From an uncultured Pseudomonadota bacterium (GTDB lineage: Bacteria > Pseudomonadota > Gammaproteobacteria > Burkholderiales > SG8-39): DNA of 64,000 bases. The stretch spans positions 29,309 to 93,308 of the forward strand of contig CAWFPL010000004.1 in the NCBI GenBank assembly GCA_963817785.1. Direction: 5' to 3'. The notes under the pieces were generated by a model, which worked only from the letters and a program-made list of their open reading frames with translations, made no database searches and was not told where the DNA came from. This document shows, piece after piece, positions 1 to 64,000 of this stretch (the first letter of the stretch is position 1; every line of letters starts with the position of its first letter). Both the position numbers and the translations under genes were made by a program.

Positions 1-392
1 CCGATGCAACCGGTCAATTCGTGTTCAAGGTCCTCTATCTGGCGAAGCCGTTCCTCCAGTTGACGTTTCCACAGACGCGAGACGCGTTGCCAGTCTTGGT
101 GGGTGGGCGCATGGTCGGTCGGTAAACCGTGGAACACCTCTCCGACGTCTGCAAGCGGTATACCAAGTCGCTTGGAGACGATCAGGAGGGAAATCCGGCG
201 AAGCATATGCCGCGGATACAGTCGTCTGTTGGCGGAGTTCCGTGCGCTGAAGATCAACCCCTTACGCTCGTAGAAACGCAATGCCGACGCCGATACGCCC
301 GTTCGCCGCATCACCTCCCCGATGGTCAGGGGCTCGGTCGGGTCGATATGACGTCCACAGGCTTCGCCTGCTTCATTGCTGGTGTCTGTCAC
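1..392 (-). CDS. soxR: SoxR/MerR-family redox-sensitive transcriptional regulator (3' end runs off the window start)
   Basis: Reverse translation gives LTIGEVMRRTGVSASALRFYERKGLIFSARNSANRRLYPRHMLRRISLLIVSKRLGIPLADVGEVFHGLPTDHAPTHQDWQRVSRLWKRQLEERLRQIEDLEHELTGCIG. That is a MerR HTH, ending at the window edge in the start of the SoxR CIGCGC motif. It is open-ended, so it is absent from the ORF track. GTG 392 is a guessed start. Confidence 0.75.
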   Translation of the reverse strand, partial: MTDTSNEAGEACGRHIDPTEPLTIGEVMRRTGVSASALRFYERKGLIFSARNSANRRLYPRHMLRRISLLIVSKRLGIPLADVGEVFHGLPTDHAPTHQDWQRVSRLWKRQLEERLRQIEDLEHELTGCI

Positions 393-1937
393 GACATGGC
401 ACCTACATCGTGTCCGGGTTCCGGGGAGCGCATGAGACAACAGCACCGCGATGGACGCGGAGAGCAGGAGGCAGATACCGCCGACTCCGATCTGAGTGAA
501 GTGCCACGATGTGGTCAACGCGTCCACCTCGGCGTCTTGGGCGGCGCCGAGGCGGCCCGCGCTCACCGCAGCCGCGCGTTCGGGGTCGCCGAGCTGATGG
601 GAAAGGAACCCGATAAGTGCGGCGCTGAAGGCGGCGATCACGAGGGCCTCGGCTGCTCCGCGGAGGGTGTTGAGAAACCCTGCCGCTGTGCCGACAAGGT
701 GTGCAGGGACAAGGCTCATTGCCTGGCCGTCGGTGATTCCGAATGATGCCCCCATACCGACACCGATCATCAGGAGCGGTACTGCGATCAGAGTCGTCGT
801 GTTGTCGGGGCCGAGCATGAGCAGGCCGAAGTTCCCGGCGACGACGAGCCCGAGTGCGATCATGATGATCAGTCGCGCGGAGACGCCTTTGTTGACCATG
901 CCGACGGCGAGGACGGGGGCCAGCAATACCGGTGCGGTCAACAGCAGCATCGCGAGCCCCGCGGTCACAGGTGTGAAGTCAACCGCCGCCTGTAGGTAGG
1001 TGGGGGAGGAACACCAGAACGCCGAGGAAACCAATCGAGGTGGTCAGCGTCGCCAGGCACCAGCCCGACGGACCTGCGGTGGGCGACGAGTTCGGGTGCC
1101 AGCACCGGGGCGCTGCTGCGCCGTTGGGCGATGGCGAAGGCGACGAGCCCGAGTGCTCCGAGAACGAGTGTGAGAAGGACTATGGGGTGCGTCCAACCGA
1201 GCTCAGGTGCTTCCAGAAGAGCGAACATCAGAGCGCTGAGGGCTACGACGAACAGGACGCTCCCGATCCAGTCGGTGCGGACGTCGTTCGCGCGGGACTC
1301 AGGAAGACGTCGTGCGCCGAGGACGATGCCGAGGCCAATGACCGCGAACACGACGAAGCTCCCTCGCCAGCCGGTCAGCGAGATCAACTCCTCGATCGAC
1401 CAGGGTTGGGCCGACAGCGATGCCGACTCCTGCCATCGTTCCCATGAACGCGAATGCGCGGTTGCGGGCGGCACCGTCGTAGTTCGAGGCCAGGAGTGCT
1501 CCGCCAGCAGCCATAATGCCCGCACCACCGGCGCCGGAGACGATACGTGCGATATCCACCATCAGGATCGTGGGGGCCAGTGCGGTCGCCAGAAACCCGG
1601 AGGAGAACACGATGGCTGCGGCGACGAACATCCGGCGACGACCTATGCGGTCTGCCGTAGCACCGGGCACGAGCGTCATCGCCGCGAAGGCGAGGTTGTA
1701 CCCGGCGACCACCCAGTTCAGTGCCGACCCGGATGCGTCGAGGTCACGTCCGATGCCCGGCAGGGCAATCGCGGTGCCTGAAATCGACATCGCCACCAGG
1801 CCAACGCCGATCAATACGACAGGCAACGTCAACCGTGACGGTGTCGTTGGTGCCGCGGGTGTAGAGGCGTCGGAGACAGTAGGGGATTCCACGGTGAGGC
1901 CCTTTCTTCGCGGGCGAGTTGCCCGTGACATGTCCAC
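393..1937 (-). CDS. MFS transporter (DHA2-like efflux), reading frame interrupted at least twice
   Basis: ORF 1299..1937 starts MDMSRATRP...LPVVLIGVGLVAMSISGTAIALPGIGRDLDASGSALNWVVAGYNLAFAAMTLVPGATADRIGRRRMF. TM-rich continuation follows in ORF 965..1528 (another frame) and in a third unlisted frame down to ~400. The overlapping + strand ORFs are GC-rich mirror ORFs. Confidence 0.8.
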
Positions 1938-2234
1938 ACCAGCACCTCAACCATGGTTGAGGTCAATCCCATGAATTCCTCTGAATGGCGCGGCAGCTTC
2001 TCGGTTGATGGCGTCGTGGCCGCCCGGATGGGGTGAACCCACGTCCTGGTGCGCTGAAAGTGGCTGTGAGCAGTGCCGATGGCACGTCCCGGAATGGGGG
2101 CGTGCCATCTTCCGTATCGGGGTCGGAGCGTTCTTTCGGTGGCGTCAGGAAATCGATACCGCTCAGGGGTTGCAACATTGCAATGACGTTTTGTATGTAT
2201 GGCCTGTCGAAAACATCGAACAAAGGAGCATCGA

Positions 2235-2447
2235 ATGTCGAATACCGCTGTTGCAGAACTCATCACCGTCACCATCACCGGAACGCCGGTGCGCGCCGAG
2301 ATCGCCGAGATCCTCGGATACCGCACCGACTTCTTCGGCGGCCGGGTCGCTGATGTGCGCCTGACCGACGGCACCGTCGCCCGGCACGTGGACACCCTCG
2401 ACATCGAGGTGAGCGCCGCCGCGCGCGGCGCACTCGCCGCCGCCTGA
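2235..2447 (+). CDS. small hypothetical protein
   Basis: Internal ATG of ORF 2199..2447 (MSNTAVAELITVTITG...), preceded by AAAGGAG at 2222-2228. Confidence 0.5.
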   Translation: MSNTAVAELITVTITGTPVRAEIAEILGYRTDFFGGRVADVRLTDGTVARHVDTLDIEVSAAARGALAAA

Positions 2448-2493
2448 TCGTTCGCCGCACTCGAATCCCTCGACCCAGCACAGGAGATCGCCC

Positions 2494-2973
2494 ATGACTG
2501 CACTCGCCACCGCGCTGCCCACCGGTGTCGCTGCCGAGGTCGACGGGGCCGCCGCGCTCGTCGTCGGCTACGTCCACGGCTTCCCGCGTCATCCGCAGCG
2601 CGGCGCATTGGTGCAGCCGCTGCGCGGCGCGCAGACCTCGGTCTCGGAGACCGGGGTGATCGGCGTACCGCTCTACGCGCTCGTCTCGGTCGACTGGGCC
2701 ACCGAAGTGACCACCATCGAACCGGGTGGCCGCACGCGGACGGTGTTCGCCACCGGCTGGCCGGGCACCCCGCAGGGGACCACCTGGTACCTGCACCCGG
2801 TCGCCCACCGCGCGGACCTGGGCCTGTACGTGCTCGACCCCGATTCGCGGTACGCCGCGAGCGGGCGCGACGCCGAGGTGCCTGCGCGGGTGCGTGCGGC
2901 GGTCCGGTCGTGGGGGTTCGGCGGCGCCGAGGGGGTCCCGGCGCGCGTGGCGGTGCACAACTTCGTGTTGTAG
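2494..2973 (+). CDS. hypothetical protein (159 aa)
   Basis: Intact ORF with AGGAG 8 nt upstream. No motif recognised. Confidence 0.55.
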   Translation: MTALATALPTGVAAEVDGAAALVVGYVHGFPRHPQRGALVQPLRGAQTSVSETGVIGVPLYALVSVDWATEVTTIEPGGRTRTVFATGWPGTPQGTTWYLHPVAHRADLGLYVLDPDSRYAASGRDAEVPARVRAAVRSWGFGGAEGVPARVAVHNFVL

Positions 2974-3019
2974 CGGGAATGTGCTGGTCATCGCCTCGGA
3001 CACCTCAGGAGTTGTCAGA

Positions 3020-3295
3020 ATGACAACTAATCATGTAGTTTTAAGTTGTCAAACAACAACGGAGGTGGAAGTATTGGACCGGTTCAAGGGGATCGACAAG
3101 GACACCCGCAAAGCCCTCAAGGCACTCGAGGAGGCAGGATTCGTGATTCGCCGAGCGAAGAGCGGCCACCCGATGGTCTACAAGGACGACGTGCTGATCA
3201 GCACGTTCTCGGGTACCGCGAGCGATTCGGCGCGCCTTCCTAACTCCCTCGCGCCGCTGAGGCGCGCAGGGTTCGAGTGGCCACCGCGCCGCTGA
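3020..3295 (+). CDS. HicA-like (YcfA-fold) putative toxin
   Basis: Internal ATG of ORF 2726..3295, with CTCAGGAG upstream. KALKALEEAGFVIRRAKSGHPMVYKDD..ISTFSGTASD....LAPLRRAGFEW resembles the HicA pattern (EKxGF..xRxxGSH....). The match is weak and by eye only. Confidence 0.35.
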   Translation: MTTNHVVLSCQTTTEVEVLDRFKGIDKDTRKALKALEEAGFVIRRAKSGHPMVYKDDVLISTFSGTASDSARLPNSLAPLRRAGFEWPPRR

Positions 3296-3401
3296 GACCG
3301 ACAAGGGCCGGGGGTGCTGGAATCACCCCCGGCCCGATCCCCATTGTCCACCACCGCATCCGACCGACCCCACAACCAGCACAGGAAAGGACTTTCGCGC
3401 C

Positions 3402-3840
3402 ATGACCGCACAGTCGTACAACGTCGTCGCCGAGATCGACGTCAGCTTCGACGAACACACCGCCGAGCAGTTGCTCGACCCCATCGCCGACTACAGCGGA
3501 GCCGCCGGCCGCTCCGAACTCGGCCACACCGAAGTCGTCTTCACCCTCCCGGCGCAGACCCTCCGGCAGGCCAACACCACCGCCCTGGCCATCCTCGAGA
3601 CCTACCCGTGGCCGCTGCGCTCGCTGCGCGTGCTGCCCACCGACGACTACGACCGGCTCGTCGACGCGATCGACGTCCCGCCGCTGGTTGTCGGTCCAGG
3701 AGGCCGCCGACCAGCTCGGTATCAGCCGCCAGGGCGTCCTCAAGGCGATCACCACCGGTTCGCTGCCCGCGATCCGTGTCGGCAGCACCTGGATCGTGCG
3801 CGAATCCGCTGTGCGCGCCCGCACACAGCGCAGCGCCTGA
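3402..3840 (+). CDS. putative antitoxin-like protein with C-terminal excisionase-type HTH (one frame change near 3685)
   Basis: The N-terminal part lies in ORF 3402... After ~3685 the sensible reading is in another frame: SVQEAADQLGISRQGVLKAITTGSLPAIRVGSTWIVRESAVRARTQRSA*, an HTH ending in TGA 3838-3840. Confidence 0.4.
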
Positions 3841-3957
3841 CCTCCACCTGCTTGGTGAATCGCCCCCACCTCGAGGACAATTCGCGTCCCCGGGTGCACC
3901 GTCGTGCCCCGGCCCGCCGCGAGGTCACCACCTCGACACCCGAGAAGGGGGACACAC

Positions 3958-4772
3958 GTGCCCAGTTCTGCGCTCGTCACACCGGGAGACGACCGGTCTC
4001 CGGTGCTCATCCACGTCCCGCACGCCTCCCGCGTCATCCCGCCCGAGGTGCGCGCGGACCTGCTCCTGACCGATACCGAACTGGCCGCCGAACTCGACGA
4101 ATCGACCGACACCGCCACCGACGAGATCGCAGCGGCAGCACTACGCCACACCGGCCGGCGCCGACGACCGTGGTCAACACGCTATCGCGGCTGGTGATCG
4201 ACCCCGAACGGTTCCCCGACGCGGGGGAGCCGGCCAATGGGTTCGGCCGGGGCGCGGTCTACACCCGCACCTGCACCGGCACGCCGCTACGACCCGAGCC
4301 GTACCCGCACGCCGAGCACCTGCTCGACGGCTATTTCCGTCCCTACGCCGACGCCGTCACCGCAGCGGTCGAGGAGCGTCTGCGCGTGTGCGGCCGCGCG
4401 GTGATCATCGACCTGCACTCGTACCCCGAGGCGCCGTCCGGGTTCGAGGATCCCGCCGCCGCGCGCCCCGCATTGTGTATCGGCACCGATGCGGTCCACA
4501 CCCCCGGCTGGCTGGCCAGGCTCGACCCGTGGCGCATTCGCGTCCCTCGCCGAGATCGCGAGATCGGCGAGAACACGCCGTATTCGGGGTGTTACGTGCC
4601 GCTGCGCCACTACGGCCGCGACGAACGCGTGACCTCGGTGATGATCGAGCTGCGCCGCGATGTCTACCTCACCGACCCGCGCACCCCGCACCCCGAGCGG
4701 GTGGAGCGGATCGGCCGCGCCCTGGCTGTTCTCATCGACCAGGTCACCGCGCAGGTGGCCGCCGATGTGTAA
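3958..4772 (+). CDS. N-formylglutamate amidohydrolase-family protein (frame change near 4150-4190)
   Basis: GTG 3958 follows GAGAAGGGGGA. PVLIHVPHASRVIPPEVRADLLL is in one frame. VVNTLSRLVIDPERF...AVIIDLHSYPEAP...NTPYSGCYVP is in the frame of ORF 3402..4772. Confidence 0.65.
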
Positions 4773-5120
4773 ACCCAAACCGGGCCCGCGCTGCACCCCG
4801 CACATGCGTGCCGCGCCTCGATCAGGTCGCCGCGCGCGTCGCAGGTTGCCCGCACGCGGCTGGCCGAGAATCCGACACATGCGCGGTTGCAACGTCGCCT
4901 CGCCGCCGCCGAGGCCGACCACGCGCAGACCCTCGCGCTGTACGACTCCACCCCGGGCGGGCAGGACGAGCTGCGCGCGGCGATCGAGGCGTCCGGCGAT
5001 CTGAGTGACCGGGACGCGCTGACCGCGCGTTTACGGGACGCTGAGAGGCTCGAGCCGAGCAAACTGCCGCCCTGCGCCGCGTGCGCGCCGAGGACAAGAC
5101 CGACAGGGAAGGAATCGACG
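4766..5120 (+). CDS. hypothetical coiled-coil protein, frame-disrupted
   Basis: ATG overlaps the upstream stop (MCKPKPGPRCTPHMRAA...). The sensible text jumps frames to ...LQRRLAAAEADHAQTLALYDSTPGGQDELRAAIEASGDLSDRDALTARLRDAE. Boundaries are uncertain. Confidence 0.3.
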
Positions 5121-5273
5121 ATGTACCACGAGGAACCGATGACACAGGAGCGCCGAGAAACGTTCTGGCGGCACGTACGGGTGGAGCCCGGACCTACCGG
5201 AGGACAAGCGCAAGAAGATCGAGCAACGCTTCACCGACCCGAAGATCCAGGAGGCCGAAGCGCTCGGCTTCTG
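5121..5273 (+). CDS. small hypothetical protein (frame change near 5170)
   Basis: GGGAAGGAA then ATG (MYHEEPMTQERRETFW). The GC3-rich continuation GGTYGWSPDLPEDKRKKIEQRFTDPKIQEAEALGF* lies in another frame. Confidence 0.3.
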
Positions 5274-5275
5274 AT

Positions 5276-5895
5276 CAACGATCAGCGCGATCACCCCGGC
5301 AGCCGAACACACACCCACCGAGGCCGAGCGCGAACGCTTCACCTCCGCGGGAATGTCCGCGCCGACGCTCTACGAGCTGGCACCGCACGACTCCGGCGTC
5401 TACCGCGCCCAGATGCTCGAGCTGACCGAAAGAATCCCTACGCCGCGTCGGTGTACGTCTACGACGAGGACGAATACCGACAGATGCGGCTGCTGGTGAC
5501 CGATGACGGAAGGGCCGGCATCGCGCTCAAAGGCGACGAGATCGTCTCCGCGTTCGCCCACAAAGACTGCGCGCACCCCAAGTCCGTGCAGTCGATGCTC
5601 GTCCCACGCCACCGCGCTCGGCGGCCATCGTCTGGACTGTTTCGACACGGTGCTTGCCGGATCTGTATGCCGACGCCGGGTTCGTGCCGGTCGCGCGGCT
5701 GAAGTGGAACGACGACTACGCCCCAGACGGGTGGGACTACGACACGTTCCGTGCGTTCAATGACGGTCGCCCGGATGTGGTGTTCATGGCCTACGACCCC
5801 GATCGTGTCGGGGGCGACTACACGCCCGGGCGGGGGATTACGTCGACGACTACGACGACGGCATCGCCCGTGCCCAGCAGTACCGGTCGCACTGA
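5276..5895 (+). CDS. GNAT-fold acetyltransferase-like protein, at least 4 frame changes
   Basis: Stitched reading: ...NPYAASVYVYDEDEYRQMRLLVTDDGRAGIALKGDEIVSAFAHKDCAHPKSVQSML / ATALGGHRLDCFDTVL / PDLYADAGFVPVARLKWNDDYAPDGWDYDTFRAFNDGRPDVVFMAYDP / GDYVDDYDDGIARAQQYRSH*. Start not resolved. Confidence 0.4.
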
Positions 5896-5949
5896 CGACT
5901 GCGCCCCGCGCGCTGTGGCTCGAATCCGTCCCCGCAACCGATGATTCGG

Positions 5950-6480
5950 GTGCGGGGACGGAGCGCCCGGCGCCGTGATCGGCACAGGGGCCTGTCCGGA
6001 AACCATGTCGAATCGCTCGATCTGCTCACCGCCGACGGGTCCATCCGCACTCTGAGCCCCTCGGACGACGACCGCGACCTGTTCTGGGCAACGGTCGGCG
6101 GCATGGGGTTGACCGGCATCGTCGTGCGGGCGCGCGTGCGCATGAAGCACACCGAAACCGCCTACTTCATCGCCGACGCACGACCGCACCGCCAACCTCG
6201 ACGAAACGATGGAACTGCTGGCCGGAGGATCCGACGACGGTTACGACTACTCGATGTCGGTGCCCGATACCATCTCCACCGGCTCAGAAGCTCGGGCCGG
6301 GCGGGATTCACCCGTGGCTCCCTTGCAACTCTTGATCAGCTTCCGCCGAAACTCCGATCGGGATCCGTTGCGGTTCACAGCGCCTCAACTATTTACGGTT
6401 CCAGACATCTTTCCGAGCGGAATGGTCAACCGGGTCACCACGCGGATCGCCTCGGAAGCGGCGTATCGGATGATCCGAAG
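5950..6480 (+). pseudogene. DprE1-like FAD-dependent oxidase, middle segment (5'-truncated, one internal frame change, interrupted by an IS)
   Basis: GNHVESLDLLTADGSIRTLSPSDDDRDLFWATVGGMGLTGIVVRARVRMKHTETAYFIAD, then LDETMELLAGGSDDGYDYS...LRFTAPQLFTVPDIFPSGMVN. This is collinear with M. tuberculosis DprE1 as I recall it. The first ~150 codons are absent. Confidence 0.75.
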
Positions 6481-7663
6481 CACGGCCGGGGCACCGTCCA
6501 GAATCGTAGGCCCGGCGGATGACCAACCGGACCTTGTTGTTCAGGCCCTCGTGGCGTCCGTTGGCCAACCCCCGGGTGACGGCCGCGAAGATGCCATCGA
6601 GATGCTTCCGGATCGTGCGGCCGACCTTGACGAACTGCGGGATGCGGCACCGCTGCGCCCACGAACACCATCGTCCGAGCATGGCGTGCACCTGATCGGC
6701 GTCGAGGTCACCGGCGAACACCGCCCGCAGGGCCTCCTTCAACTCGTAGGCACGCACCAGAGCACCACCGTGGCGTTTGAGTGAATCGAGGGTCGATTCC
6801 TGTTTGGCGGTGAGCTTTTCCGGGTTCTTGAGCAACACCCACCGAGCCCCCTTGTAGGTTTTCGCGACCTGCGTGTCCGACAGGGTGCGCGCCAATTGCC
6901 ACTGTCGACGGCGCACGTCGTCGAGCGCGGCGGTGGCCAGTTTGACGACGTGAAACGGATCGAAGCAGATCGTTGCCTGCGGGGCGTGGGCGCGCACCGA
7001 CTTCCGATACGCCGGCCCCAGATCCATCGACACCGCTTCGATCTTCTCGGCCCCACCGTCGGGCAGCGCGTCGGTGAAGAACTCGTCGAGCGCGGCCGCG
7101 TTCTTGCCTTCGGTACCCCACACGATCGTTCCGGACTCGTGGTCGGATACCAGGGTCAGATACTTGTGGTGCCGACGCCACGATATTTCGTCGACGCCGA
7201 TGTCGACCAGATTCGCGAACCGGTCCGGGTCGAGTTTCTCGGCGGCGACCCGGCTGCACATCGCGCCGACGGTGCGCCAGGTGACGCGGCAGAAACGGGC
7301 CACGGTGGATTTGTCGGTCTTGGTGGCCAGCCATACCGCCAGGTCCTCGAAGTCGCGGGTGAACTTCGATCCGGGGCGGGCGAAGTCCACTGCCTCGGCC
7401 AGCACCCCGTGTTCGGGGCAGTGCAGTCGTCGGCGTCGTAGGGTGAGCACACAGATGCGTCCGCCCAGGTCCAGGTGCCGCCACGACGAATCCACGTCGC
7501 GGGTGTCGTAGCGGTGACGGGTCGAGAATGCGCAGTGTGGGCACTGCATCCGGCGGTGTTTCGGGTGGACCTCGACCACGACGCGACCGTCGGTGATCTC
7601 GACGTCACGGACGGTGGTGCTCGGCAGAGCCAGCAGTTGGTTCAGTAGGGTGGTGGCGCGCAC
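6389..7663 (-). CDS. ISL3-family transposase
   Basis: A 424-aa ORF with an N-terminal zinc finger (CPHCAFSTRHRYD...LHCPEHG) and IGVDEISWRRHHKYLTLV, SMDLGPAYRKSV, FDPFHVVKL, EGLNNKVRLVIRRAY. The last ~35 aa are not family-like and probably read out of the element. Confidence 0.9.
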   Translation of the reverse strand: MRATTLLNQLLALPSTTVRDVEITDGRVVVEVHPKHRRMQCPHCAFSTRHRYDTRDVDSSWRHLDLGGRICVLTLRRRRLHCPEHGVLAEAVDFARPGSKFTRDFEDLAVWLATKTDKSTVARFCRVTWRTVGAMCSRVAAEKLDPDRFANLVDIGVDEISWRRHHKYLTLVSDHESGTIVWGTEGKNAAALDEFFTDALPDGGAEKIEAVSMDLGPAYRKSVRAHAPQATICFDPFHVVKLATAALDDVRRRQWQLARTLSDTQVAKTYKGARWVLLKNPEKLTAKQESTLDSLKRHGGALVRAYELKEALRAVFAGDLDADQVHAMLGRWCSWAQRCRIPQFVKVGRTIRKHLDGIFAAVTRGLANGRHEGLNNKVRLVIRRAYDSGRCPGRASDHPIRRFRGDPRGDPVDHSARKDVWNRK

Positions 7664-7783
7664 GGGTCGGCTCCGGTGGGTGGATGAGTGTAGGAGCTTT
7701 CGACCTTACGGGCGGCCCGTGCGCCCATCCTCACTGCTGCTCGTCGTAGCACATGCTCGGTCATCCACATTCAGAGCAATAGA
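6480..7783 (-). mobile_element. ISL3-family insertion sequence (left end apparently truncated)
   Basis: Contains the transposase ORF. The DprE1-like frame stops near 6480 and resumes at 7784. The sequence at 7755-7783 looks like a terminal repeat, but I found no inverted copy at the left end. Confidence 0.65.
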
Positions 7784-8175
7784 TCCAGTTTTCGGTCCCC
7801 TTCGGTGCCGAGCAGAAACTCGCCGACACCATTCGTGTGATCGCCGAGTCCGGCCACCGGTCATTCCTGAACGTGTTCAAACGAATGGGAGAAGGCAACC
7901 CGGCCCCGCTGTCGTGGCCCGAACCGGGCTACATGCTCAGCCTCGACTTCCCGATCCGTGACGGCCTCGGCAAATTCTGCGACGAACTCGACGAACGCGT
8001 CCTCGATCTCGGTGGCCGACTGTACTTCGCGAAGGACTCACGAAGCACACCTGAGCGCATCGCCCGGATGTACCCGAGGCTCGATGAATGGCGGGCAACC
8101 AGGGACCGCATCGACCCCGACGGTGTGTTCATATCTGATCTTGCGCGCAGGCTCCGATTGGTTGCTCTTGGTTGA
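7784..8175 (+). pseudogene. DprE1-like FAD-dependent oxidase, C-terminal segment
   Basis: IQFSVPFGAEQKLADTIRVIAESGHRSFLNVFKRMGEGNPAPLSWPEPGYMLSLDFPIRDGLGKFCDELDERVLDLGGRLYFAKDSRSTPERIARMYPRLDEWRATRDRIDPDGVFISDLARRL. This is collinear with the DprE1 C-terminus. An in-frame TAG lies immediately upstream, at the IS joint. Confidence 0.85.
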
Positions 8176-8234
8176 TGCCGCGCGCGTGTCGGTTGGTGCG
8201 TGGTGGCGGAATCAAAGCTCTGGAGATGATGGCT

Positions 8235-8765
8235 ATGCGGCGTCGAGTGATCCTGAGTGCAGCCCGGATAACGATCACAGAGTGGCTGCCGGGCGACTTG
8301 GACGACCTCGTCGCTCTGCACTCAGACCCGCTCACCATGCGATTCATCGGTTATGGGCGGCCAGACACGCTCGCTGAGGCACGGTCGCGACTCGATGGAT
8401 ACCTTGGTGAACAGCGGACCAGGGGCTGGACCAAGTGGCGAGTGGAGAACCGCGACGGCGTCCTGATCGGCCGCGCAGGCTTCGGTGAGGTCGATTCCTG
8501 TCGTGAGCTGGCATATGCCCTGAGTCGAGACCTGTGGGGCCGGGGCCTCGCGACCGAGATCGCCAGCGCCTTGGTCAACTGGCACCTCGAACATCCTGCG
8601 CGTGAACTGTCGTCGAGCGGGCTGTGTGCGCATGTCGAGGTGGGGAATCAGGCGAGCGTGCGCGTGCTCGAAAAGGTTCGATTCGAGTACGTGGACTCGC
8701 GTGTGTACGCAGGTGCCGACTGCGACTTCTTTCGGCTTCCGACTGGGACAGTGCTACTCCCGTAG
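8235..8765 (+). CDS. GNAT-family N-acetyltransferase (RimJ/RimL-like)
   Basis: ORF 8172..8765. ITITEWLPGDLDDLVALHSDP...IGRAGF...ELAYALSRDLWGRGLATEIASALVNW...VEVGNQASVRVLEKVRFEY. ATG 8235 fits the GGAGA site best; 8226 is also possible. Confidence 0.8.
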   Translation: MRRRVILSAARITITEWLPGDLDDLVALHSDPLTMRFIGYGRPDTLAEARSRLDGYLGEQRTRGWTKWRVENRDGVLIGRAGFGEVDSCRELAYALSRDLWGRGLATEIASALVNWHLEHPARELSSSGLCAHVEVGNQASVRVLEKVRFEYVDSRVYAGADCDFFRLPTGTVLLP

Positions 8766-8913: not shown

Positions 8914-8969
8914 GGTGTGGGCGTCGATCGGGAGGTGGTCGCAATTTCTGAATTCGTGCGCGGTTCGAG

Positions 8970-55577: not shown

Positions 55578-56540
55578 ATTACGACATCATCGGCGACATC
55601 CACGGCCACGCTGACGCACTCAAGGCATTGCTCCAGGACATGGGCTACCAAAACAGCCGCGGTGCGTGGCGTCACCCTAGTCGCAAGGCGATCTTCGTCG
55701 GCGACTTCATCGACCGGGGGCCGAAGCAGGTCGAGTCTGTGGAGATCGTCCGTCGCATGGTGGATACTGACGCGGCGCTGGCGGTAATGGGCAATCACGA
55801 GTTCAATGCCATCGCCTAGTTTCTCCCCGACGAACGAAACCCGGGCGAATACGTGCGCCCCCATCATGCGCCGAAGTACGGCGACAAGAATTTTCAACAG
55901 CACAAAGCGTTCTTGAACGAAGTCATCGGCATGCCGCTCCACAAGGAGATCATCGACTGGTTTCTGACGTTGCCGCTTTGGCTCGATCTTCCCGGACTGC
56001 GCGTCGTCCACGCTTGCTGGCACCAGCGGTTCATGGACTTTCTCGCGCCGAAACTGGCGCCAGGCCATAGGCTCACAAGCGATCTGATGGTTGAAGCGAG
56101 CCGCGAGCCGGACGACGAGTCCGTTAAGGACGACGCGGAGCCATCTGTCTTCAAAGCGGTGGAGGCGCTGACCAAAGGCATCGAAATCCCGCTTCCAAAG
56201 CCTCACTCGTTCAAAGACAAGGATGGGCACGAGCGAAGCCGGGTACGCGTTCGCTGGTGGGACCAGAATGCCGTTACCTACAAACGGACCGCGATGTTAC
56301 TCGACGATGAGGCACGCAACAAGCTTCCCGGAAACGCCGATACCCGACCACGTTCGAATCGGAGACGGCGGCGGCAATCCGATCTTCATCGGCCACTACT
56401 GGTTGACCGGGACGCCAGAGCTGCGATCCAAGAAGGTGGCGTGCGTGGATTACAGCATCGCGAGGGGCGGTAAGCTCGTAGCTTATCGTTGGGACGGGGA
56501 AAACGAACTGTCGTCGACGAATCTAGTTTCGCTCCGTTGA
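55574..56540 (+). pseudogene. Calcineurin-like metallophosphoesterase (PrpE/ApaH-like) with an in-frame TAG and one frame change
   Basis: MNYDIIGDIHGHADAL, IFVGDFIDRGP, VMGNHEFNAIA then TAG (55817-55819), where homologues as I recall them have Trp. The same frame resumes FLPDE...VVHACWH. A frame change near 56335 precedes IFIGHYWL... Confidence 0.8.
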
Positions 56541-56599
56541 GCGAAGGCTGAGCGTAGCCCGTGGGCAGAACAAAGTTGTATTGCGCCGGCTACAGGTGA

Positions 56600-57745
56600 C
56601 GCAAGTTCGTGACGTTGACGGTAAAAATTTTGTAGAAAAATCTGGTTCGTCAGTAGAAATTGTGGGCGAGTTGCGGCTCGGGTAGTTTGCCAAGTGCATG
56701 ATATAGCGCGATTTCGGTGACCGGAAGGTGCGAAAGCCGTAGGATTTTCTCATGGTGACTTTGGCCTTGTTGTTCAGGCCCTCGACGACGCCGCTGGAGA
56801 ACTCCTTTCTGGCGCGGAAGTAGTTGAGCATCAGCTCGCGATGGTCGCGCAGGGTGCGGGCGAATTTCTTCATCGGCTCGATGCGCGAGCGCATGACCTG
56901 GCGTGCACCACTCGTCGAGGAACTTGCCGGCCCAGGTCGGCGAGTCGTAGTCCCAGAATTGCTGGAAGTCTTCCTTGAGCAGGTAGGCGCGCACGCTCTT
57001 GCAGGTTGTAGCGCAGCAGATCGCGCAGCCGGAAGCGCTGCTGTGTCGGTCAGGTTCTCCGGGCGCTTGAGCAGGCACCAGCGGGACTTCTTGAGCACCG
57101 GCTCGTAGCCGTCCTGCGACCATGCGGCGCGCCTCGGCGGCGCGCACCTCGTCGAGCGCCTCGTTCATCTTGGCCACGATGTGGAAGCGGTCGAGGATGT
57201 TGAGCGCGTTGGTGCAGTGCTCGCGGATCACCTCCAGGTAGGGCTTCCACATGTCCGAGCAGACGAACTCGATCTTCGGCGCCAGTTCCTTGCCGATCAG
57301 GGTGAAGAACTGCTCGAAGCTCTCGATGGTGCGCTCCTTGCCGACCCACAGCAGGCGGGTGCAGCCGGCTTCGATCTGGTAGACCAGCGTCAGGTACTTG
57401 TGGCCCTTGGCCGTATGCGATCTCGTCGACGCCGATGGCCCGGATCGGCACCGAGCTCCCGGTGCTCCAGCCCCCACTGCACGACGTACTCGACCGCCTG
57501 GCAGACCTTCTCCCAGGTGGTGCGGAACGCTCCGGCGGTCTCCTTCCACGACAGCTTGCGCGCCCAGTGCGCCAGAAACAGCATGTAGGCCTTGGTCAGG
57601 GTGTGCTTGCCCGTGCGGCCCAGGGCACCTGCTCGACCTTGACCCCGCAAGCGCCGCACTCGACCCGGCGCATGCGGTAGAGCAGCACCACCGCGAAGCC
57701 CCACACCGGGATGAACTCGAAGCGGCGCTGCGGCAGCTGAAGAAC
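56600..57745 (-). mobile_element. ISL3-family element remnant (transposase in several frames, N-terminal end missing)
   Basis: HKYLTLVYQIEAGCTRLLWVGKERT, FVCSDMWKPYLEVIREH, ILDRFHIVAKMNEALDEVR, RIEPMKKFARTLRDHRELMLNYF, VVEGLNNKAKVTMRKSYGFRTF. It is unrelated at DNA level to the ISL3 copy at 6389-7663. Confidence 0.75.
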
Positions 57746-57892
57746 AGTACGAAGCGTTACTTGCGCTCAGGCAGCCCACCGAGACTTATAGTAACGTCAT
57801 CGGTAGACTACTACGGACTGTTACCGGAAATATCGGGTCTGCTTCGTGTAATATTTATATAATCCATAAGTTACCATTGCATTAATGGCGTT

Positions 57893-59158
57893 ATGGCTCG
57901 CTGGCGCTTGGTAACCCGAATGGCAGCCCACGTTCACAATTTCATTAGCCCTAAAAAGCAGGACCAATTGCCGCGTGGACTGCTGTTCATTTCCATTGCA
58001 CTGTTTTGCGGCTTAGTCGGTGCGCACTCGAATCAGCCGACCACCCACAGCCCCAACAACACCTGGACGTATGTCGTAGCACCCCGATTTGACAACGCCG
58101 GTTCCTTTTCTGAAGGACTCGCCGCCGTAGAGGTTGCCGGTAAGTGGGGATTCATCGACAAGTCTGGGAAGCTGGTAATCGAAGCCCAATTCAATCCGGG
58201 CCAAGCGCAATACAACGCCAATTTTTCGGACGGCCTTGCAGCGGTGAATTTCGCTAGCGGTAAAGGATGGTCCGGAGTCCCGCCTGCCGGTACACAGTGG
58301 GGATTCATAGACAGAACTGGAGCGGTTGTTATTAACCCGCAATTTTCAGGCGATTACTATAGCCCGCCATATTTTGCGGAGGGTCTGGCTGTCATTCGGT
58401 TTGGTGAAAAGTACGGCTATATCGACAAGACCGGGAAGGTGGCCATTGCGCCGATTTTCGATAGTGCGTATCGGTTTTCAAGCGGACTCGCAGTCGTAAG
58501 AATCGGAGAAAAGGAAGGCTACATCGACAAGACTGGCAAATTTGCAATCAAGCCGGCTCTTGAGTCCGCTGGGTCATTCTCCGAGGGCTTAGCGACGGTC
58601 ACGCTAGGAGGCAAAGACGGGTTGATCGACAAGAGCGGCAAAGTAGTGGTCGAGCCACGCTTCGACTCGATAGACCAATTCTCAGACGGACTGGCCGGGT
58701 TCACAGTCGAGCACTTCTCACACATCGATAAGAATGGCCTGCCGGTTAGCAATTCGGAGACCTCAAGCGGAACGAAATTCGGCTATATCGACAACGCAGG
58801 TCGAATAGTCATTGCACCGCAGTTCAATCCAACGTTTCTCAATTTCTTGATCAGTTATTTCTCCGAGGGTCTGGCCGTTATCGAGTTTGGCGCACAAACA
58901 AGCGAACATGTAGATTTCGGAGCAACAGGCAAGTTCGGTTACATCAATAAAAAGGGGCGGTTAGTTATAAATCCAAAGTTCGACGACGCATTGTCGTTCT
59001 CCGAGGGCTTGGCAGCTGTGCGTGTCGGGGGCAAGTGGGGCTACATCGATAAGACTGGGCGAATAGTGATCGCGCCGCAGTTCGACGACGCTGATAGCTT
59101 TTCCGACGGCCGCGCCAAAGTACAGATCGGCCGCAAATACGGCTTCATTGCCAGATAG
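57893..59158 (+). CDS. WG-repeat (KWG-type) protein with N-terminal signal/anchor
   Basis: About 11 units of F.EGLA.V...GKWGFIDKSGK.VI.PQFD, plus an N-terminal hydrophobic segment LLFISIALFCGLVGA. Confidence 0.85.
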   Translation: MARWRLVTRMAAHVHNFISPKKQDQLPRGLLFISIALFCGLVGAHSNQPTTHSPNNTWTYVVAPRFDNAGSFSEGLAAVEVAGKWGFIDKSGKLVIEAQFNPGQAQYNANFSDGLAAVNFASGKGWSGVPPAGTQWGFIDRTGAVVINPQFSGDYYSPPYFAEGLAVIRFGEKYGYIDKTGKVAIAPIFDSAYRFSSGLAVVRIGEKEGYIDKTGKFAIKPALESAGSFSEGLATVTLGGKDGLIDKSGKVVVEPRFDSIDQFSDGLAGFTVEHFSHIDKNGLPVSNSETSSGTKFGYIDNAGRIVIAPQFNPTFLNFLISYFSEGLAVIEFGAQTSEHVDFGATGKFGYINKKGRLVINPKFDDALSFSEGLAAVRVGGKWGYIDKTGRIVIAPQFDDADSFSDGRAKVQIGRKYGFIAR

Positions 59159-59312
59159 CTCCGACAAGGCTTTCTAAACAAAATCTAGACACGAAGCCGC
59201 CAGAACGGCCTATTTTCATAATAACCTATGGTTTTTACTGGCGTCCCCACGGGGACTTGTGGCTGAGGTCAATGCCGTGCGCGTCCCGTGGGAGGTTCGT
59301 CTGGCTGCCTGA

Positions 59313-60300
59313 ATGCTCACGTCCATCTCCGATCGGCGGCATCAGCCGCCGACTCTTAGCGCAGTGCTGACCCCATGTATTCCCCGATGCGATCGGTGGC
59401 AGGGTGACCATCGATCGCGTCTGCAAGCCATGCAATGATTGGCTTGGCGCCAATGTCGATGTGTTGCTCACCGATCACGATCTGATCTTGATTAAACGCG
59501 CTCAGCTCGGGGTGCGCGATAGCGGCGGAAATGTCATCAACCCGTGGAAGGACGTATTTCGTCGCGGAGTGATGGCCAATGATCCGGCGCAAAGAGTCGA
59601 GCTTGACCACGACGAAGACAGCGGAGAACTTGTTCCGCGGGTTCTGTATAAGTCCACCAGAACAACGCTGGACAACGGAAATCAGCTCCTGCAAATCACG
59701 ATCGACGCGAGCAAGGCGGATGAAATCGGAAAGATCATCGAGCGGACGCGACAGAGGGAGGGGTTGCCGCCGTTGTCGGAGAAGGAGCTCAGCGATCAGG
59801 TCGCGGCTGCGAAGGCGAATGTGCGCCGCATAGATCAGCCCGAAGTGAAGTACGGAATTGACGTGGATGTCAGGGCCTACAAACGCGCTGTCTGCAAAAG
59901 CGCATATGAGCTGGCGTGGCAATGGCTCGGCGACGACTACCTGGAGGACCCTGTCGCGGTGAACTTGCGGGATCTGATCCTCAAAGATGCCAAGGACGAA
60001 ATCCGAGGTTCGATCGATCTGACTGGAGACACGCCCGCACTACTGCCGTGGAAGAGCGAAGGGTGCGCCCATGTAGGGATCGGCCAGAGAGTAGCCGGGC
60101 ATCTTTGCATTGCTATCCGCATCTTTGACGTGGTATCTGGCGTAATCGATGTCAGCGACACGGAAGATAAATATCGAAGCCGGGGCCGGTCGCTTGGGGA
60201 AGGTCTTTTTGTCCTGAACGATCCGCAGACCGGCGCCTTGCGGCAATCCACGCTCGTGGAGGAATTGCTCCGCCTGAGCAGCCGATCGCGCCGCGGCTAG
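59313..60300 (+). CDS. HNH-like (HNH_5-type) nuclease-domain protein with large C-terminal domain; frame change near 59375
   Basis: PHVFPDAIGGRVTIDRVCKPCNDWLGANVD resembles the EH(I/V)xPxALGG....VCxxCNxxxGxxVD pattern. An in-frame TGA lies just upstream of PHVFP. A possible N-terminus, MLTSISDRRHQPPTLSAVLT, is in another frame. Confidence 0.4.
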
Positions 60301-60496
60301 AAAGCCCTTGGCCAACATTGCGCCGCCTAGGGCAGACCCCGAGCGAGGAAGGGGCCACCCCTAACCCCTTGAATTCCCCGCCTCTTCTCCCATTCCCGGA
60401 CCGGCCAGAAAACAGGCCATTTATTCGGCCATACTTTGTCCTTACGCCTTACTAACATGCTGATATATTGTATTTAGTGTTGATAGGAAAGCGGAC

Positions 60497-61711
60497 ATGA
60501 AAGCGGCCAAAAAACCGGCCAAAGACCGGGGGGAGTCCATCAGCCTGATGGAGCCGCTTCTCATCGGCCAAACTTCGCGCCATCGCGAGGTTTTGACCGA
60601 TCTCGCCATGGAGCTCGGGCGGAGAAGCACCGGTTTCCGCCGTTCGCTTCCAGGATCTTTGACCGCCTCCCTTGCCGACCTCGTACGGGCGATGAACTGC
60701 TATTACAGCAACCTCATCGAAGGGCATGACACCCACCCGATCGACATCGAGAGCGCCCTGAAAGGCGACTACAGCAAGGACGCGAAGAAGCGCGATCTCC
60801 AGCTTGAGGCCAAGGCGCACATCGAAGTGCAGAAATGGATAGACGGCGGCGGCCTCGCAGGCAGGGCCGTGACCGCCGACGGTATCCGCGAGATCCACCG
60901 GCGCTTTTGCGGTCATCTGCCCGAAGATCTGCTGTGGGTCGAAGACCCGAAAACCAAGGAGCGGAGCAAAGTCATTCCCGGCGAATTCGGCCACCGCGAC
61001 GTCGAGGTGGGTGAGCATATTCCGGTGAGCGCACCGGCGGTGCCGCGCTTCCTGAAGCGCTTTGAAGAGGTTTATGGTGGTCTCCGTATCACCGAGACCA
61101 TTCTCGCCGCTGCCGCCGCACACCACCGCCTTGTCTGGATTCACCCGTTCCTTGACGGCAATGGCCGCGTCGCCCGGCTTATGTCGCACGCGACTTTGCT
61201 GGAGGCGCTGGACACCGGCGCAATCTGGTCGATTGCGCGCGGGCTCGCACGCCGTGTCAACGACTATAAGGCCCACCTTGTCGCCTGCGACCTCCAACGT
61301 CGCAACGATCTTGATGGCAGGGGATCGCTGAGCGAGGAGAACCTCGCCGAATTCACAAGGTTCTTCCTAGAGATCTGCCTTGACCAGGTCACCTTCATGG
61401 AAGGGCTGATGCAGCCCGATCAGCTGCGCGCGCGCATTCTGCTGTGGGCGCAAGAGCAGATTTACCTAGATAAGTTGCCGCAAAAGGCGGAACTCATTCT
61501 TGAAGCCGTTTTGTACCGGGGAGAACTGCCCCGTGCCGATACCGCCGGCATTCTTGGAGTGAGCGATCGTCAGGCCCGCCGGATCGTGTCCGCCCTCATG
61601 GAACACGAGGTGCTCCAGTCCGAGAGCACGCGCGCGCATTTGCGCCTCGCGTTTCCCGCGAAGCTTGCGTCGCGCTGGATGCCGGGGCTCTTTCCCGAAA
61701 AGACAGCCTGA
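60497..61711 (+). CDS. Fic-family protein (AMPylase type) with inhibitory-helix motif and C-terminal wHTH-like region
   Basis: HPFLDGNGRVARLMSH is the Fic core HxFx(D/E)GNGRxxR. YYSNLIEG upstream fits the (S/T)xxxE(G/N) auto-inhibition motif. Intact 404 aa. Confidence 0.9.
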   Translation: MKAAKKPAKDRGESISLMEPLLIGQTSRHREVLTDLAMELGRRSTGFRRSLPGSLTASLADLVRAMNCYYSNLIEGHDTHPIDIESALKGDYSKDAKKRDLQLEAKAHIEVQKWIDGGGLAGRAVTADGIREIHRRFCGHLPEDLLWVEDPKTKERSKVIPGEFGHRDVEVGEHIPVSAPAVPRFLKRFEEVYGGLRITETILAAAAAHHRLVWIHPFLDGNGRVARLMSHATLLEALDTGAIWSIARGLARRVNDYKAHLVACDLQRRNDLDGRGSLSEENLAEFTRFFLEICLDQVTFMEGLMQPDQLRARILLWAQEQIYLDKLPQKAELILEAVLYRGELPRADTAGILGVSDRQARRIVSALMEHEVLQSESTRAHLRLAFPAKLASRWMPGLFPEKTA

Positions 61712-61920
61712 GAACCGCGGCGCGGCAGCACCTCCAGCGCCCCCACCCGCCACTACCACCGGGCTTGAAGGCGCCGGGCAGGCTTATACCGGCCTGGCCA
61801 GCAGGCGATCACCTTCTGGAAATACATCGTCATCACCATCAGCATCGTTGCCATCTCCGTCATGACTTTGCGTCATCGGGTGGACGAATGTGGGATGGCG
61901 CTCGAATGCGAGCCGCGGGC

Positions 61921-62100
61921 TCAGAGCAGGTCGAGCTGATGTGGTTGTGCGGCGGCGGGTGCGCGGGGCGCGCGTAGCTGTCGGCGCAGCGTGGGGCTGA
62001 GATAGCAGCGGGCGATGAGCACCGCGGTGTGACGCGAGGCTCGGTGATCGAGCCCGGCGGCAGCCCGCCTCGGGCCTCGAGCAGATCGCATTGTTAACGG
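61921..62100 (-). pseudogene. Possible tyrosine-recombinase C-terminal remnant
   Basis: Tail of ORF 61921..62247: LDHRASRHTAVLIARCYLSPTLRRQL...HQLDLL*. This is only a vague resemblance to the LGH....T..Y end of integrases. Confidence 0.2.
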
Positions 62101-62535
62101 TGGCGTAAATCCGCGTGATTCCGGGGTTTTGATGCGCCGCGCGGTGTTGGCAGGCGCGTTTTGAGCTGGAATTCTCAATCGGCTTTGCGGAGGGTGTGGG
62201 GGTGGCGCCCCCCCGTCCTCTGAAGAGTGCGTTCGGACCATCGTCATGATGACCGAACGCGCGCCGTGTACGCGCGGTGTGAATCAACAACCCATGTGGG
62301 CGGGCCGGCACCGCTTCGGCCGCGACCGCGCGTCTCTGGATTGGCTATGCTTGCGGCCTCGCCGAAAATGACGAAGGCCCGGGCAGGTTCTTGGTCGGAC
62401 CCCCGGGCTTTCAGCGCCGCGGCTCGCGTGAGAATGCGCCTCGCGCGCCCAACTCGCGCTCGACCTCGTCGTGAAAGCGTATCCACGCGGCACGTGCCTG
62501 CGGCGACAAGATCGAGCACCACCGGGCTGAGGCAG

Positions 62536-62582
62536 CCGCGCTCGATCGCGGCTTGATCGGGGCTCACATAGCGGCCGCACAT
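62536..62582 (-). pseudogene. SRAP (YedK-like, SOS-response-associated peptidase) N-terminal ~15 codons only
   Basis: MCGRYVSPDQAAIER matches the invariant MCGR(Y/F) start of SRAP proteins. The reading becomes non-protein-like afterwards. Confidence 0.4.
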
Positions 62583-62959
62583 ACCCGCTCAATGCGGGCG
62601 CAAACCGCCCGAGCGGGCGCGTAACCGCCTGTACCCCGCACGGAAGATTTCCATGGGCGCCTCGAGGAACTCCGGCCGATCGGCGACGAGGTGCGTGAGC
62701 TCGATCGTGCGGGCGCCGCGGGCGTAGGCTTCGCGCGCCGGGCGCTCCGCGGGCAACCGGGCGGGCAAGCCCGCCACCTCGACGTGTTCCTCGGATCGCG
62801 GATGTCGTGGGGCTGATGCCGCATGCTCCAAAATGCGCCCGGTGCATGCGCGTGAGCGCTCGCGGCGAGGCCGGATGGCGGCATGATGACGCGTCCTGAT
62901 CATGATGTACGCCACAGTATAAACTCCTTGGGTCATGTCCACTTTGACGGGGAGTTACG

Positions 62960-63202
62960 ATGTCGGACGAGGATCTGAAGGCCGAGCTCGAGCGCTTGCG
63001 TAACGAGAACGCTGCGCTCAAAAAGGGGGCTGCCACTGGCATTACCATGAAAGTCAGCGAGAAGGGCGCGCTCTCGATCTATGGGATGGGGCGTTTCCCG
63101 GTAACGCTTTACAAGGAGCAGTGGCTCAAGCTCCTGGGAATGTCCGATGTCATCCGGGCGTTCATCGAGGCGAACGAGGGACGATGGAAGGCGAAGGGAT
63201 GA
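62960..63202 (+). CDS. small hypothetical protein (80 aa, N-terminal coiled coil)
   Basis: Intact ORF MSDEDLKAELERLRNENAALKK...FPVTLYKEQWLKLLGMSDVIRAFIEANEGRWKAKG. Confidence 0.5.
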   Translation: MSDEDLKAELERLRNENAALKKGAATGITMKVSEKGALSIYGMGRFPVTLYKEQWLKLLGMSDVIRAFIEANEGRWKAKG

Positions 63203-63528
63203 CACGCGAGGAGCGGCAGACCCAAGAAGCTTAGAGCACCTATTGGCGCGCCCTCGGAGCTCGAGCTTCCCATTTTACGAGCACGGCGTGCAGGCGCGGG
63301 GCCGCAGGCATCGGGAACGCGATAGCGGCGACACGGCGCCTCGCGAGCATGAAGGTCACACGGCCCGCGGGCTGTGCGCGGCGCGGGTTCCTCGCGAAGA
63401 GCGCTTGCGGGCCGTGCTCCAAGCCGACGCCGCAGCGCAATCGCCGCGTTTCTTAGTGGTGGGAATCAGCTTGAGCGAGACGCCGCCTCAAGCTGGGTGG
63501 CGCACTAAGGGGTGCGGGGTGGCTATGC

Positions 63529-64000
63529 TCAGGGTTTGCGGCGTTGGTGGCGTGCTCGAGTCGCGGCGCGCGCGAGTGCTGCTTCATGCCTGTCGGCGTC
63601 GTTTAGGAGTTCCGACGCAAACTCGTCTAGATTCTCCTCGAACGCTTGACTGGCCTCGACCACGAGCTCGCGCTGCACGGCCTCAAGCCTCGCCTTCTCG
63701 GGTTCTTTCAGCATGGGAACACGTGCAAGGAGCGCCTGGAGCTCATCGCAAAAGGGAAAGCGTTCCTTGGTGAGCTCGCCCATAGGGCCGCCAGGGCGCA
63801 GGGGCTGCGCGGCGCCGAGCAGCTCCGCATTGATACGGGCGCAGAGGGCACCCTTGCGCTCGCCGACGAAATCGTCGAACACCGCCACGGCCTCGGGCTC
63901 CTCGATATCTCTGAGCCAATGCGCGCACAGGCGCCGCGGGTCGATCGAGCGGGGCACGCGTGTCGCGTCGAAGAAGATCGTATCGTGATTGCGCCCGAGC
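63529..64000 (-). CDS. hypothetical protein, 5' end beyond the window
   Basis: The frame of ORF 63529..63957 stays open to the window edge (...LGRNHDTIFFDATRVPRSIDPRRLCAHWL...). Confidence 0.45.
   Translation of the reverse strand, partial: LGRNHDTIFFDATRVPRSIDPRRLCAHWLRDIEEPEAVAVFDDFVGERKGALCARINAELLGAAQPLRPGGPMGELTKERFPFCDELQALLARVPMLKEPEKARLEAVQRELVVEASQAFEENLDEFASELLNDADRHEAALARAATRARHQRRKP

Follow-up and report, generated by a model that had tools for sequence, protein, structure and literature searches.

A 64-kb stretch of a public contig is very probably an adapter-containing chimeric nanopore assembly of at least six unrelated fragments

Introduction

A 64,000-nucleotide (nt) stretch of an assembly assigned to an uncultured Pseudomonadota bacterium (GCA_963817785.1, contig CAWFPL010000004.1, positions 29,309 to 93,308; "the window" hereafter, meaning this whole stretch) strings together blocks of very different composition and apparent taxonomy. 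The question it raises is whether such a mosaic arose by natural integration or is a product of sequencing and assembly. An earlier note, made from the sequence alone, had described abrupt composition and taxonomic switches, genes truncated at four joints (about 22523/22524, 22928/22929, 41729/41730 and ~47790) and no direct repeats or att-like sequences at these joints, and had judged that contigs strung together, a chimeric assembly or an artificial composite would account for the pattern better than natural integration. Our analysis narrows this choice to a chimeric assembly. We conclude that the window is very probably part of a publicly deposited chimeric nanopore assembly that still contains adapter sequence, is made up of at least six unrelated fragments, and is not biology.

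Results

Composition and layout of the window

The guanine-plus-cytosine (GC) content is ~65% over positions 1-22500, 70-76% over 23000-41700, 36-44% over 41730-47790 and 52-67% beyond. Likelihood change-points are located at 41733, 47777 and, less strongly, 22947, and the trinucleotide divergence between adjacent 1.5-kb segments peaks at 41750 (0.246), 47800 (0.120) and 22950 (0.043), compared to a median of 0.012. The steps in sliding GC and in trinucleotide divergence coincide with joints. The mosaic described earlier, including an intermediate-GC island as its last block, is borne out. Based on six-frame translation, coding frames are interrupted on either side of every claimed joint. We distinguish at least six fragments (A, B, C1, C2, D and E; Table 1) separated by five joints, all of which cut genes. 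The four joints of the earlier note were essentially right, but a fifth, hidden at 24607-~24660, had been overlooked.

The per-block nucleotide matches show A to be Rhodococcus-like and C2 to be alphaproteobacterial. The segment 22939-24606, which had been included in the alphaproteobacterial block, instead belongs to a separate lineage whose relatives are labelled Krumholzibacteriia.

Nanopore adapter remnants at two joints

The published strands of the nanopore ligation adapter are AATGTACTTCGTTCAGTTACGTATTGCT and GCAATACGTAACTGAACGAAGT, and the top strand is preceded by a T10 leader, or by T8-CCTG... in the newer kit (10.1101/2022.07.07.499093, PMC11533379, PMC12886913). The exact 11-mer TACGTATTGCT at 22928-22938 is the 3' end of the top strand. 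The exact 12-mer AGCAATACGTAA at 24607-24618 is the reverse complement of the last 12 nt of the top strand, and corresponds to the nanopore end adapter (the start of the bottom strand, including its dA tail).

Both sites have the same layout, consisting of an end adapter, a poly-T leader and the tail of the start adapter of the next molecule. At the first junction a degenerate end adapter, AGCAATCCGCAA, follows fragment B at 22895-22906, and the order is AGCAATcCGcAA (22895-22906), T7 (22907-22913), GTAGGCCTGACTCA and TACGTATTGCT, with a degenerate middle that ends in ...CCTGACTCA before TACGTATTGCT. At the second junction AGCAATACGTAA is followed by tcgcg, T10 (24624-24633) and a degenerate start adapter, CTTCG...TTCGACACGT. 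Two copies of the motif AGCAATNCGNAA-N(0-6)-T7 are present, whereas 100 shuffles of the sequence contained none. Only three A/T runs of at least 7 nt are present in the 58 kb of GC-rich sequence, two of them being the poly-T runs of these junctions.

Decisive here is fragment C1, which lies between the two sites. The nucleotide alignment of C1 to contig_8036 of ENA ERZ25039527 (87.5% identity) covers exactly 22939-24606. It begins right after TACGTATTGCT, so that the 3' end of the start adapter (...GTTACGTATTGCT) abuts the insert, and stops immediately before AGCAATACGTAA, so that the end adapter (GCAATACGTAAC... with its preceding dA tail) adjoins the insert on the other side. C1 also has the orientation expected for a single adapter-flanked library molecule. 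As the homology to contig_8036 leaves no base between itself and either adapter remnant, 22939-24606 represents a single whole library molecule with its adapters on both sides. The joint that the earlier note had set at 22928/22929 thus exists, but its place has to be corrected to a 45-nt adapter junction.

The second junction is crossed by an open reading frame (ORF) that runs from C2 into C1 and is recorded as protein P0379.

Truncated genes at the fragment ends

By megablast, several segments of fragment A are 82-89% identical to plasmids of Rhodococcus. The alignment to Rhodococcus oxybenzonivorans pRB98 (88.9%) covers 21503-22523 and ends exactly at 22523, although the query reached 24000, which places the first joint (22523/22524, joint 1) precisely where it had been proposed. 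The pRB98 integrase has 357 amino acids (aa). Only its last 57 are kept in the window, cut mid-codon at 22523, and these are the tyrosine-recombinase catalytic fragment noticed before. An exact 50-mer spanning joint 1 was unmatched in GTDB genomes.

On the other side of joint 1, fragment B holds ~100 N-terminal codons of a gene whose 3' end is cut at the joint; the gene is a member of an uncharacterised family of ~210-aa proteins (start MYRCEATS). Based on 809 homologues, mostly of 206-235 aa, family residues 1-91 are matched in one frame and residues ~86-100 in another; a single frameshift interrupts B, and beyond it the match to the family runs on to joint 1. The family N-terminus (22524-22826, minus strand) reads MYRCEATS..GFVQQLAVSY, and members occur in Acetobacteraceae and Gemmataceae genome bins. 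No match to the family was found in Pfam, NCBIfam or PADLOC, and an exact 40-mer from inside B was unmatched in GTDB genomes.

The 134-aa ORF that covers B (405 nt) is artefactual. Its homologues begin at Met35. Adapter sequence supplies the ATG and the first ~11 codons, the ~23 codons that follow come from the 5' leader of the B gene, and translation stops at joint 1. P0001 is a 100-aa call within this ORF. We also considered B as an integron cassette or a planted complete gene, and rejected both because its start is adapter and its end a frameshifted truncation.

In C1, the homologue of the GT-C-like ORF on contig_8036 is 506 aa long and 82% identical, and the window copy lacks the C-terminus, as had been reported for this membrane protein. 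The closest named relatives of C1 are genome bins labelled Krumholzibacteriia. C2 encodes a FixJ-like response regulator, a histidine kinase, ppsA, an NAD(P)-binding protein, nifJ, a DHOD-like protein and an AIDA-like adhesin. The NAD(P)-binding/nifJ/DHOD-like cluster is colinear with a Phenylobacterium zucineum plasmid at 77% nucleotide identity, and ppsA resembles that of Azospirillum (78%).

Fragment D was traced through a protein (46069-46605) that is also encoded on contig_90340 of ENA ERZ25039477 (L001, 40,901 bp) and on two Logan contigs. The segment 41729-47786 is 99.4% identical to contig_90340 and corresponds to positions 5999-12043 of the retrieved L001 segment. L001 runs on colinearly beyond either end of D, and L002 does so beyond the right end (joint 4), which makes D a 6,058-bp piece from the interior of a larger element; L003 is contained entirely in D. 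The gene at the left end of D has 274 aa in the native contig, of which 162 are kept here. At this boundary (joint 3) the adhesin ORF of C2 is cut within a choice-of-anchor D domain. The 426-aa ORF that crosses joint 3 consists of the 162 real N-terminal codons of the D gene followed by antisense read-through of the adhesin gene, and is an artefact, as was suspected. The boundary itself, formerly given as 41729/41730, was essentially right and is refined to 41728/41729, where the sequences meet flush from both sides.

The two genes that meet at joint 3 are indeed both truncated, but the proposed capsid identity of the D gene finds no support in Pfam, PHROGs or NCBIfam. Searches of these three databases with this gene and most D genes, and of PHROGs with ten genes of the native 40.9-kb contig, matched only a transglycosylase domain. 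D had no megablast match in a phage collection, and an exact 40-mer from D was unmatched in IMG/VR. The block is AT-rich, as stated earlier, but on these comparisons the label "capsid" for its gene, and "viral" for D as a whole, are weakly supported. The only IMG/VR relative of the AT-rich element is 34% identical. A viral nature is plausible, and the element may represent a poorly known phage group. Next to its transglycosylase gene is a gene with a Laminin_G_3 domain.

Fragment E begins flush at 47787. From there to 52488 it shares 95.4% identity with JGI 3300050210 Ga0502768_0004571 and with a Logan contig. The PLD-like gene at this end has 717-721 aa in more than 100 homologues and is complete in two independent contigs. 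The loss of its N-terminus, noted earlier, amounts to the first 268 of 719 aa, and the joint formerly set at ~47790 is located at 47786/47787 (joint 4), flush from both sides. In the per-block comparison used for taxonomy, the only match of E was that of an ISL3 element to Burkholderiales plasmids. Joints 3 and 4 are blunt, with no common or inserted bases, and the 37-38-mers across each of them were unmatched in JGI metagenome contigs. Truncation at the joints is thus established for the recombinase, GT-C, PLD-like, adhesin and "capsid-like" genes.

The chimera is in the deposited record and absent from independent assemblies

A mosaic of this kind could be produced by concatenating separate records without spacers, either during construction of the window or dataset or at submission, in which case the joints would be record ends. 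The perfectly blunt joints, the presence of one block of only ~370 nt and the unrelated taxonomy of the fragments are what such concatenation would give. Protein look-ups were made by exact sequence in NCBI and ENA sources. On 232,388-bp contigs we recovered an IS21 transposase from A, P0001 from B, P0139 from C1, P0121 and P0122 from D, and P0124, P0128 and P0129 from E. P0379, which crosses the hidden joint, is also on a 232,388-bp contig. Because proteins of five of the six fragments and a cross-joint product are all found on contigs of this length from the same sources, it is strongly indicated that the chimera is present in the deposited record and was not created by cutting the window. 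In addition, tandem adapter remnants in which an end precedes a start are a mark of concatenation at the level of reads, not of files. We consider concatenated records to be highly improbable.

Six independent sequences carry D, E or a relative of C1 (in ENA ERZ25039477, ENA ERZ25039527, JGI 3300050210 and three Logan contigs). None of them contains any of the joints. L001 reads through both ends of D, L002 through joint 4, L007 and L008 through the start of E, and L009 (contig_8036) through both ends of C1; L003 lies within D and hence provides no test of a joint. The recurrence of the same junctions in independent assemblies, which the earlier note had named as one of the results that would refute its view, was not observed among these six public sequences, and this check comes out in favor of the note.

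The nearest independent copies of D and C1 are in ERZ25039477 and ERZ25039527, which are neighboring accessions with Flye-style contig names. The 232-kb record is probably from the same study and, because of this, its sister assemblies may carry similar chimeras.

Lack of integration signatures

We next consider a natural mosaic replicon built by integration, transposition or illegitimate recombination, with D as a prophage, B as a cassette, and C and E as islands. Some features of the window fit this explanation, including the recombinase piece beside B, the abundant insertion sequences (IS) of A, and the nature of E as a mobile defence island with an integrase in a relative. Against it, an interrupted gene with one half on each side of an insert was never found. 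The GC content drops from 74% to 44% within 100 nt, the flanks are from different phyla, two joints contain synthetic adapter sequence, and no joint is common to independent assemblies.

The specific signatures of mobile elements were also sought. Within ±150 nt of pairs of joints, direct and inverted repeats did not exceed chance, the only shared word above background being the adapter 11-mer; this agrees with the earlier statement that direct repeats and att-like sequences are lacking. No tRNA genes were found in the window. As a prophage, D has neither ends of its own nor an integrase, and at either end it stops inside a gene. It also lacks att repeats: the ±150-nt flanks of its ends share no word longer than 7 nt, whereas shuffles gave up to 10. 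Its flanks are not halves of one locus, with an alphaproteobacterial adhesin on the left and the C-terminal 451 aa of a PLD-like protein on the right. For B as an integron cassette, there is no intact intI with attI, only the last 57 codons of a pRB98-type integrase, and B is a truncated gene next to adapter sequence; attC sites were not detected, with no specific search made for them. For B as an IS or transposon, no terminal inverted repeats or target-site duplication beyond chance were found, and B encodes a piece of a gene and not a transposase.

Thus, natural integration is excluded at the two adapter joints and very unlikely at the others, and the chance that the window is a natural mosaic replicon is negligible. 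The same can be said of a mixed explanation, in which the adapter joints are technical and the adapter-free joints A|B, C2|D and D|E are real molecules of the sample, for example formed by in vivo end-joining after uptake of DNA; we give it hardly any credence.

Uneven sequence quality and the origin of the adapter-free joints

The fragments differ in apparent sequence quality. In C1, 10 of the 12 alignment gaps relative to contig_8036 are not multiples of 3, and the same is true of 129 of the 141 gaps between C2 and P. zucineum. The C2 genes ppsA and nifJ each hop between frames at least seven times, and the DHOD-like gene also hops repeatedly. Outside one variable patch D is identical to an independent assembly, the alignment of E to its relative contains only three gaps, each a multiple of 3, and A has full-length transposase ORFs. 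On this contrast, B, C1 and C2 would be unpolished sequence from single reads, and A, D and E a consensus of many reads.

Chimeric nanopore reads are documented, and "middle adapters" serve to recognize them (10.1101/2022.07.07.499093). We propose that one or more chimeric reads of an Oxford Nanopore ligation library formed the backbone of the contig. At least six unrelated fragments (from a Rhodococcus-like plasmid, an unknown bacterium, a Krumholzibacteria-like organism, an alphaproteobacterium, an AT-rich phage-like element and a defence-island bacterium) would have been joined blunt end to blunt end. At the two adapter joints, consecutive molecules may have been read or called as a single read, or adapter-bearing molecules may have been ligated. 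At the three adapter-free joints, fragments may have been ligated to each other during library preparation, or a later mis-join may have occurred. The assembler would then have retained the chimeric path, and polishing would have corrected the abundant A, D and E, leaving the single-read B, C1 and C2 full of indel errors. We infer this order of events (chimeric read, assembly, uneven polishing), as well as the origin of the adapter-free joints.

Several observations weigh against this explanation. Three of the five joints (22523/22524, 41728/41729 and 47786/47787) have no trace of adapter; other evidence marks them as chimeric, but the mechanism there is deduced only. The adapter copies are partial, with middle parts that are degenerate or deleted, and the score of a gapped alignment of the whole adapter is not above the AT-rich background; what decides the matter is only the exact motifs at the adapter ends, together with their flush placement. 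To explain why A, D and E are of high quality, uneven polishing has to be assumed in addition. Finally, that the 232,388-bp contigs are one shared record is judged from their equal length and same sources, not from a record name.

The lack of adapter at three joints, together with the contrast between the consensus-like A, D and E and the single-read-like B, C1 and C2, could also be explained if only the adapter joints are read-level and the other three were made by an assembler or scaffolder, through a graph mis-join or a collapsed repeat. Such errors require something to mislead the overlap graph, but there is no common sequence or microhomology at these joints, and the blunt join of the 370-nt B to A is hard to obtain from overlaps. 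We regard an assembler origin of the three joints as unlikely, and favor chimeric reads as the source of the backbone.

Other features of the fragments

Five IS families (ISL3, IS21 istAB, IS1380, IS4 and IS3) are crowded into ~15 kb of fragment A (6389-21503), and the elements are nested. The IS1380 is 99.7% identical to the copy on the R. pyridinivorans SB3094 plasmid, and matches at this level were found on R. pyridinivorans and R. rhodochrous plasmids. This identity suggests recent spread. At 3-1561 (minus strand), a MerR regulator and the C-terminal half of an MFS transporter share one frame, and the N-terminal half of the transporter is in another. Because the gene is split over two frames, with an apparent frameshift near 1000, fragment A may not be error-free.

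All differences between D and contig_90340 (22 substitutions and one 13-nt intergenic indel) are in 43171-44088, and the remaining 5.1 kb is identical. This 0.9-kb patch covers the start of a 359-aa gene, a 122-aa gene and the end of a 268-aa gene, and looks like a strain recombination patch.

At the start of E (47787-52449), the 719-aa PLD-like and 1107-aa SNF2-type proteins match the PADLOC models ZacB and ZacC (also PDC-M27B/C, DrmC/DrmD-like). In the native contigs (L007 6653-13480; L008 1078-7905) a ZacA-like 446-aa gene precedes this pair, and in L007 the ZacA/B/C-like genes adjoin a type III methyltransferase, a ResIII enzyme, an OLD-family nuclease and an integrase. Based on these model matches, the ZacA/B/C-like genes are a candidate three-gene defence system that is cut by joint 4 in the window.

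Downstream in E, the NrtR-like regulator is a Nudix/winged-helix protein, and its divergent partner is an ADP-ribosylglycohydrolase fused to Sel1 repeats. An ISL3 transposase remnant is missing ~51 aa at its N-terminus and is broken up into three frames, although neighboring E genes are intact. A composition peak at ~57750 lies next to the WG-repeat gene of low GC content, and marks either a natural decayed IS or another adapter-free joint. An extra joint at 52488 was considered and rejected. This position is the stop codon of a complete convergent ORF, and we read it as natural island variation.

Table 1 Fragments, junctions, artefactual ORFs and other features of the window
Feature	Coordinates	Strand	Description	Basis
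Fragment A	1..22523		Rhodococcus-like, IS-rich plasmid DNA	Megablast
Fragment B	22524..22893	-	370-nt gene piece	Family homologues
Adapter junction 1	22894..22938	+	45 nt	Adapter match
Fragment C1	22939..24606	-	1,668 bp, 76% GC, Krumholzibacteria-like glycosyltransferase piece	ENA ERZ25039527 contig_8036 alignment
Adapter junction 2 (hidden fifth joint)	24607..~24660	+	Right edge approximate (24634-24668)	
Fragment C2	24661..41728		~72% GC, alphaproteobacterial, many frameshifts	Nucleotide matches
Fragment D	41729..47786	-	6,058 bp, 36-44% GC, internal slice of 40.9-kb phage-like contig	
Fragment E	47787..64000		52-67% GC, defence-island piece	JGI and Logan contig alignment
Artefactual 134-aa ORF	22524..22928	-		
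Artefactual ORF across hidden joint (P0379)	24308..24778	-		
Artefactual 426-aa ORF	40935..42215	-		
ISL3	~6500-7800		Fragment A	
IS21	~13900-16430		Fragment A	
IS1380	16755-18452		Fragment A	
IS4	~18480-19730		Fragment A	
IS3	~20120-21503		Fragment A	
Tyrosine recombinase, C-terminal 57 codons	22351..22523	-	Contains catalytic HxxR...Y region	pRB98 integrase alignment
GT-C/arabinofuranosyltransferase-like gene		-	Fragment C1; without last 51 of 506 aa, internal frameshifts	
Saccharopine-dehydrogenase-like gene, last ~98 codons		-	Fragment C1; upstream of GT-C gene	
Lytic-transglycosylase-domain gene	44716-45291		Fragment D	
PLD-like (ZacB-like) gene	47787-49135		Fragment E; without first 268 of 719 aa	
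SNF2-type helicase	49126-52449		Fragment E; 1107 aa	
NrtR-like regulator and ADP-ribosylglycohydrolase-Sel1 protein	53027-55408		Fragment E; divergent pair	
ISL3 remnant	56625-57751	-	Fragment E	
WG-repeat protein gene	just after ~57750		Fragment E; 52% GC	
Fic protein	60497-61711		Fragment E	PADLOC SoFic model match

Discussion

The window is best used as a warning about data quality, and the finding has no biological significance. No operon, island, prophage or system extends across 22524, 22894-22938, 24607-24660, 41729 or 47787 in any organism. The advice of the earlier note not to construct operons or systems across joints holds. The three ORFs at 22524..22928, 24308..24778 and 40935..42215 are artefactual, and at least two artefact-derived products (P0001 and P0379) are already in public protein collections. 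An adapter-bearing 232-kb record in NCBI/ENA could end up as contamination in a genome bin, make horizontal transfer look more frequent than it is and give rise to spurious protein families. The pattern AGCAATACGTAA...poly-T...TACGTATTGCT provides a cheap screen for the same fault in this record and its sister assemblies.

Prophage or island integration is superficially similar, in that GC-rich DNA surrounds both a defence island and a phage-like block of high AT content, and a piece of tyrosine recombinase is close by. The window differs from it in having no att repeats, complete integrase or split target gene, and in that the phage block is internal to its element and the flanks are from different organisms.

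The two adapter junctions resemble the middle-adapter reads that are split by Porechop-type tools, in that an end adapter followed by a start adapter lies between unrelated inserts, which directly abut the adapter 3' end and the dA tail. The adapter sequences agree with the ones given in 10.1101/2022.07.07.499093, PMC11533379 and PMC12886913. In contrast to raw middle-adapter reads, the chimera here is part of a 232-kb assembled, partly polished and archived contig, and its adapters are reduced to 11-12 exact bases and a T run. The blunt joins at 22523/22524, 41728/41729 and 47786/47787 are like the adapter-free ligation chimeras of White et al. 2017 (PMC5600009) and Xie et al. 2026 (PMC13141652). 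Those chimeras are mainly repeats of the same amplicon or inverted repeats and are found in single reads, whereas here up to three fragments from different organisms are chained.

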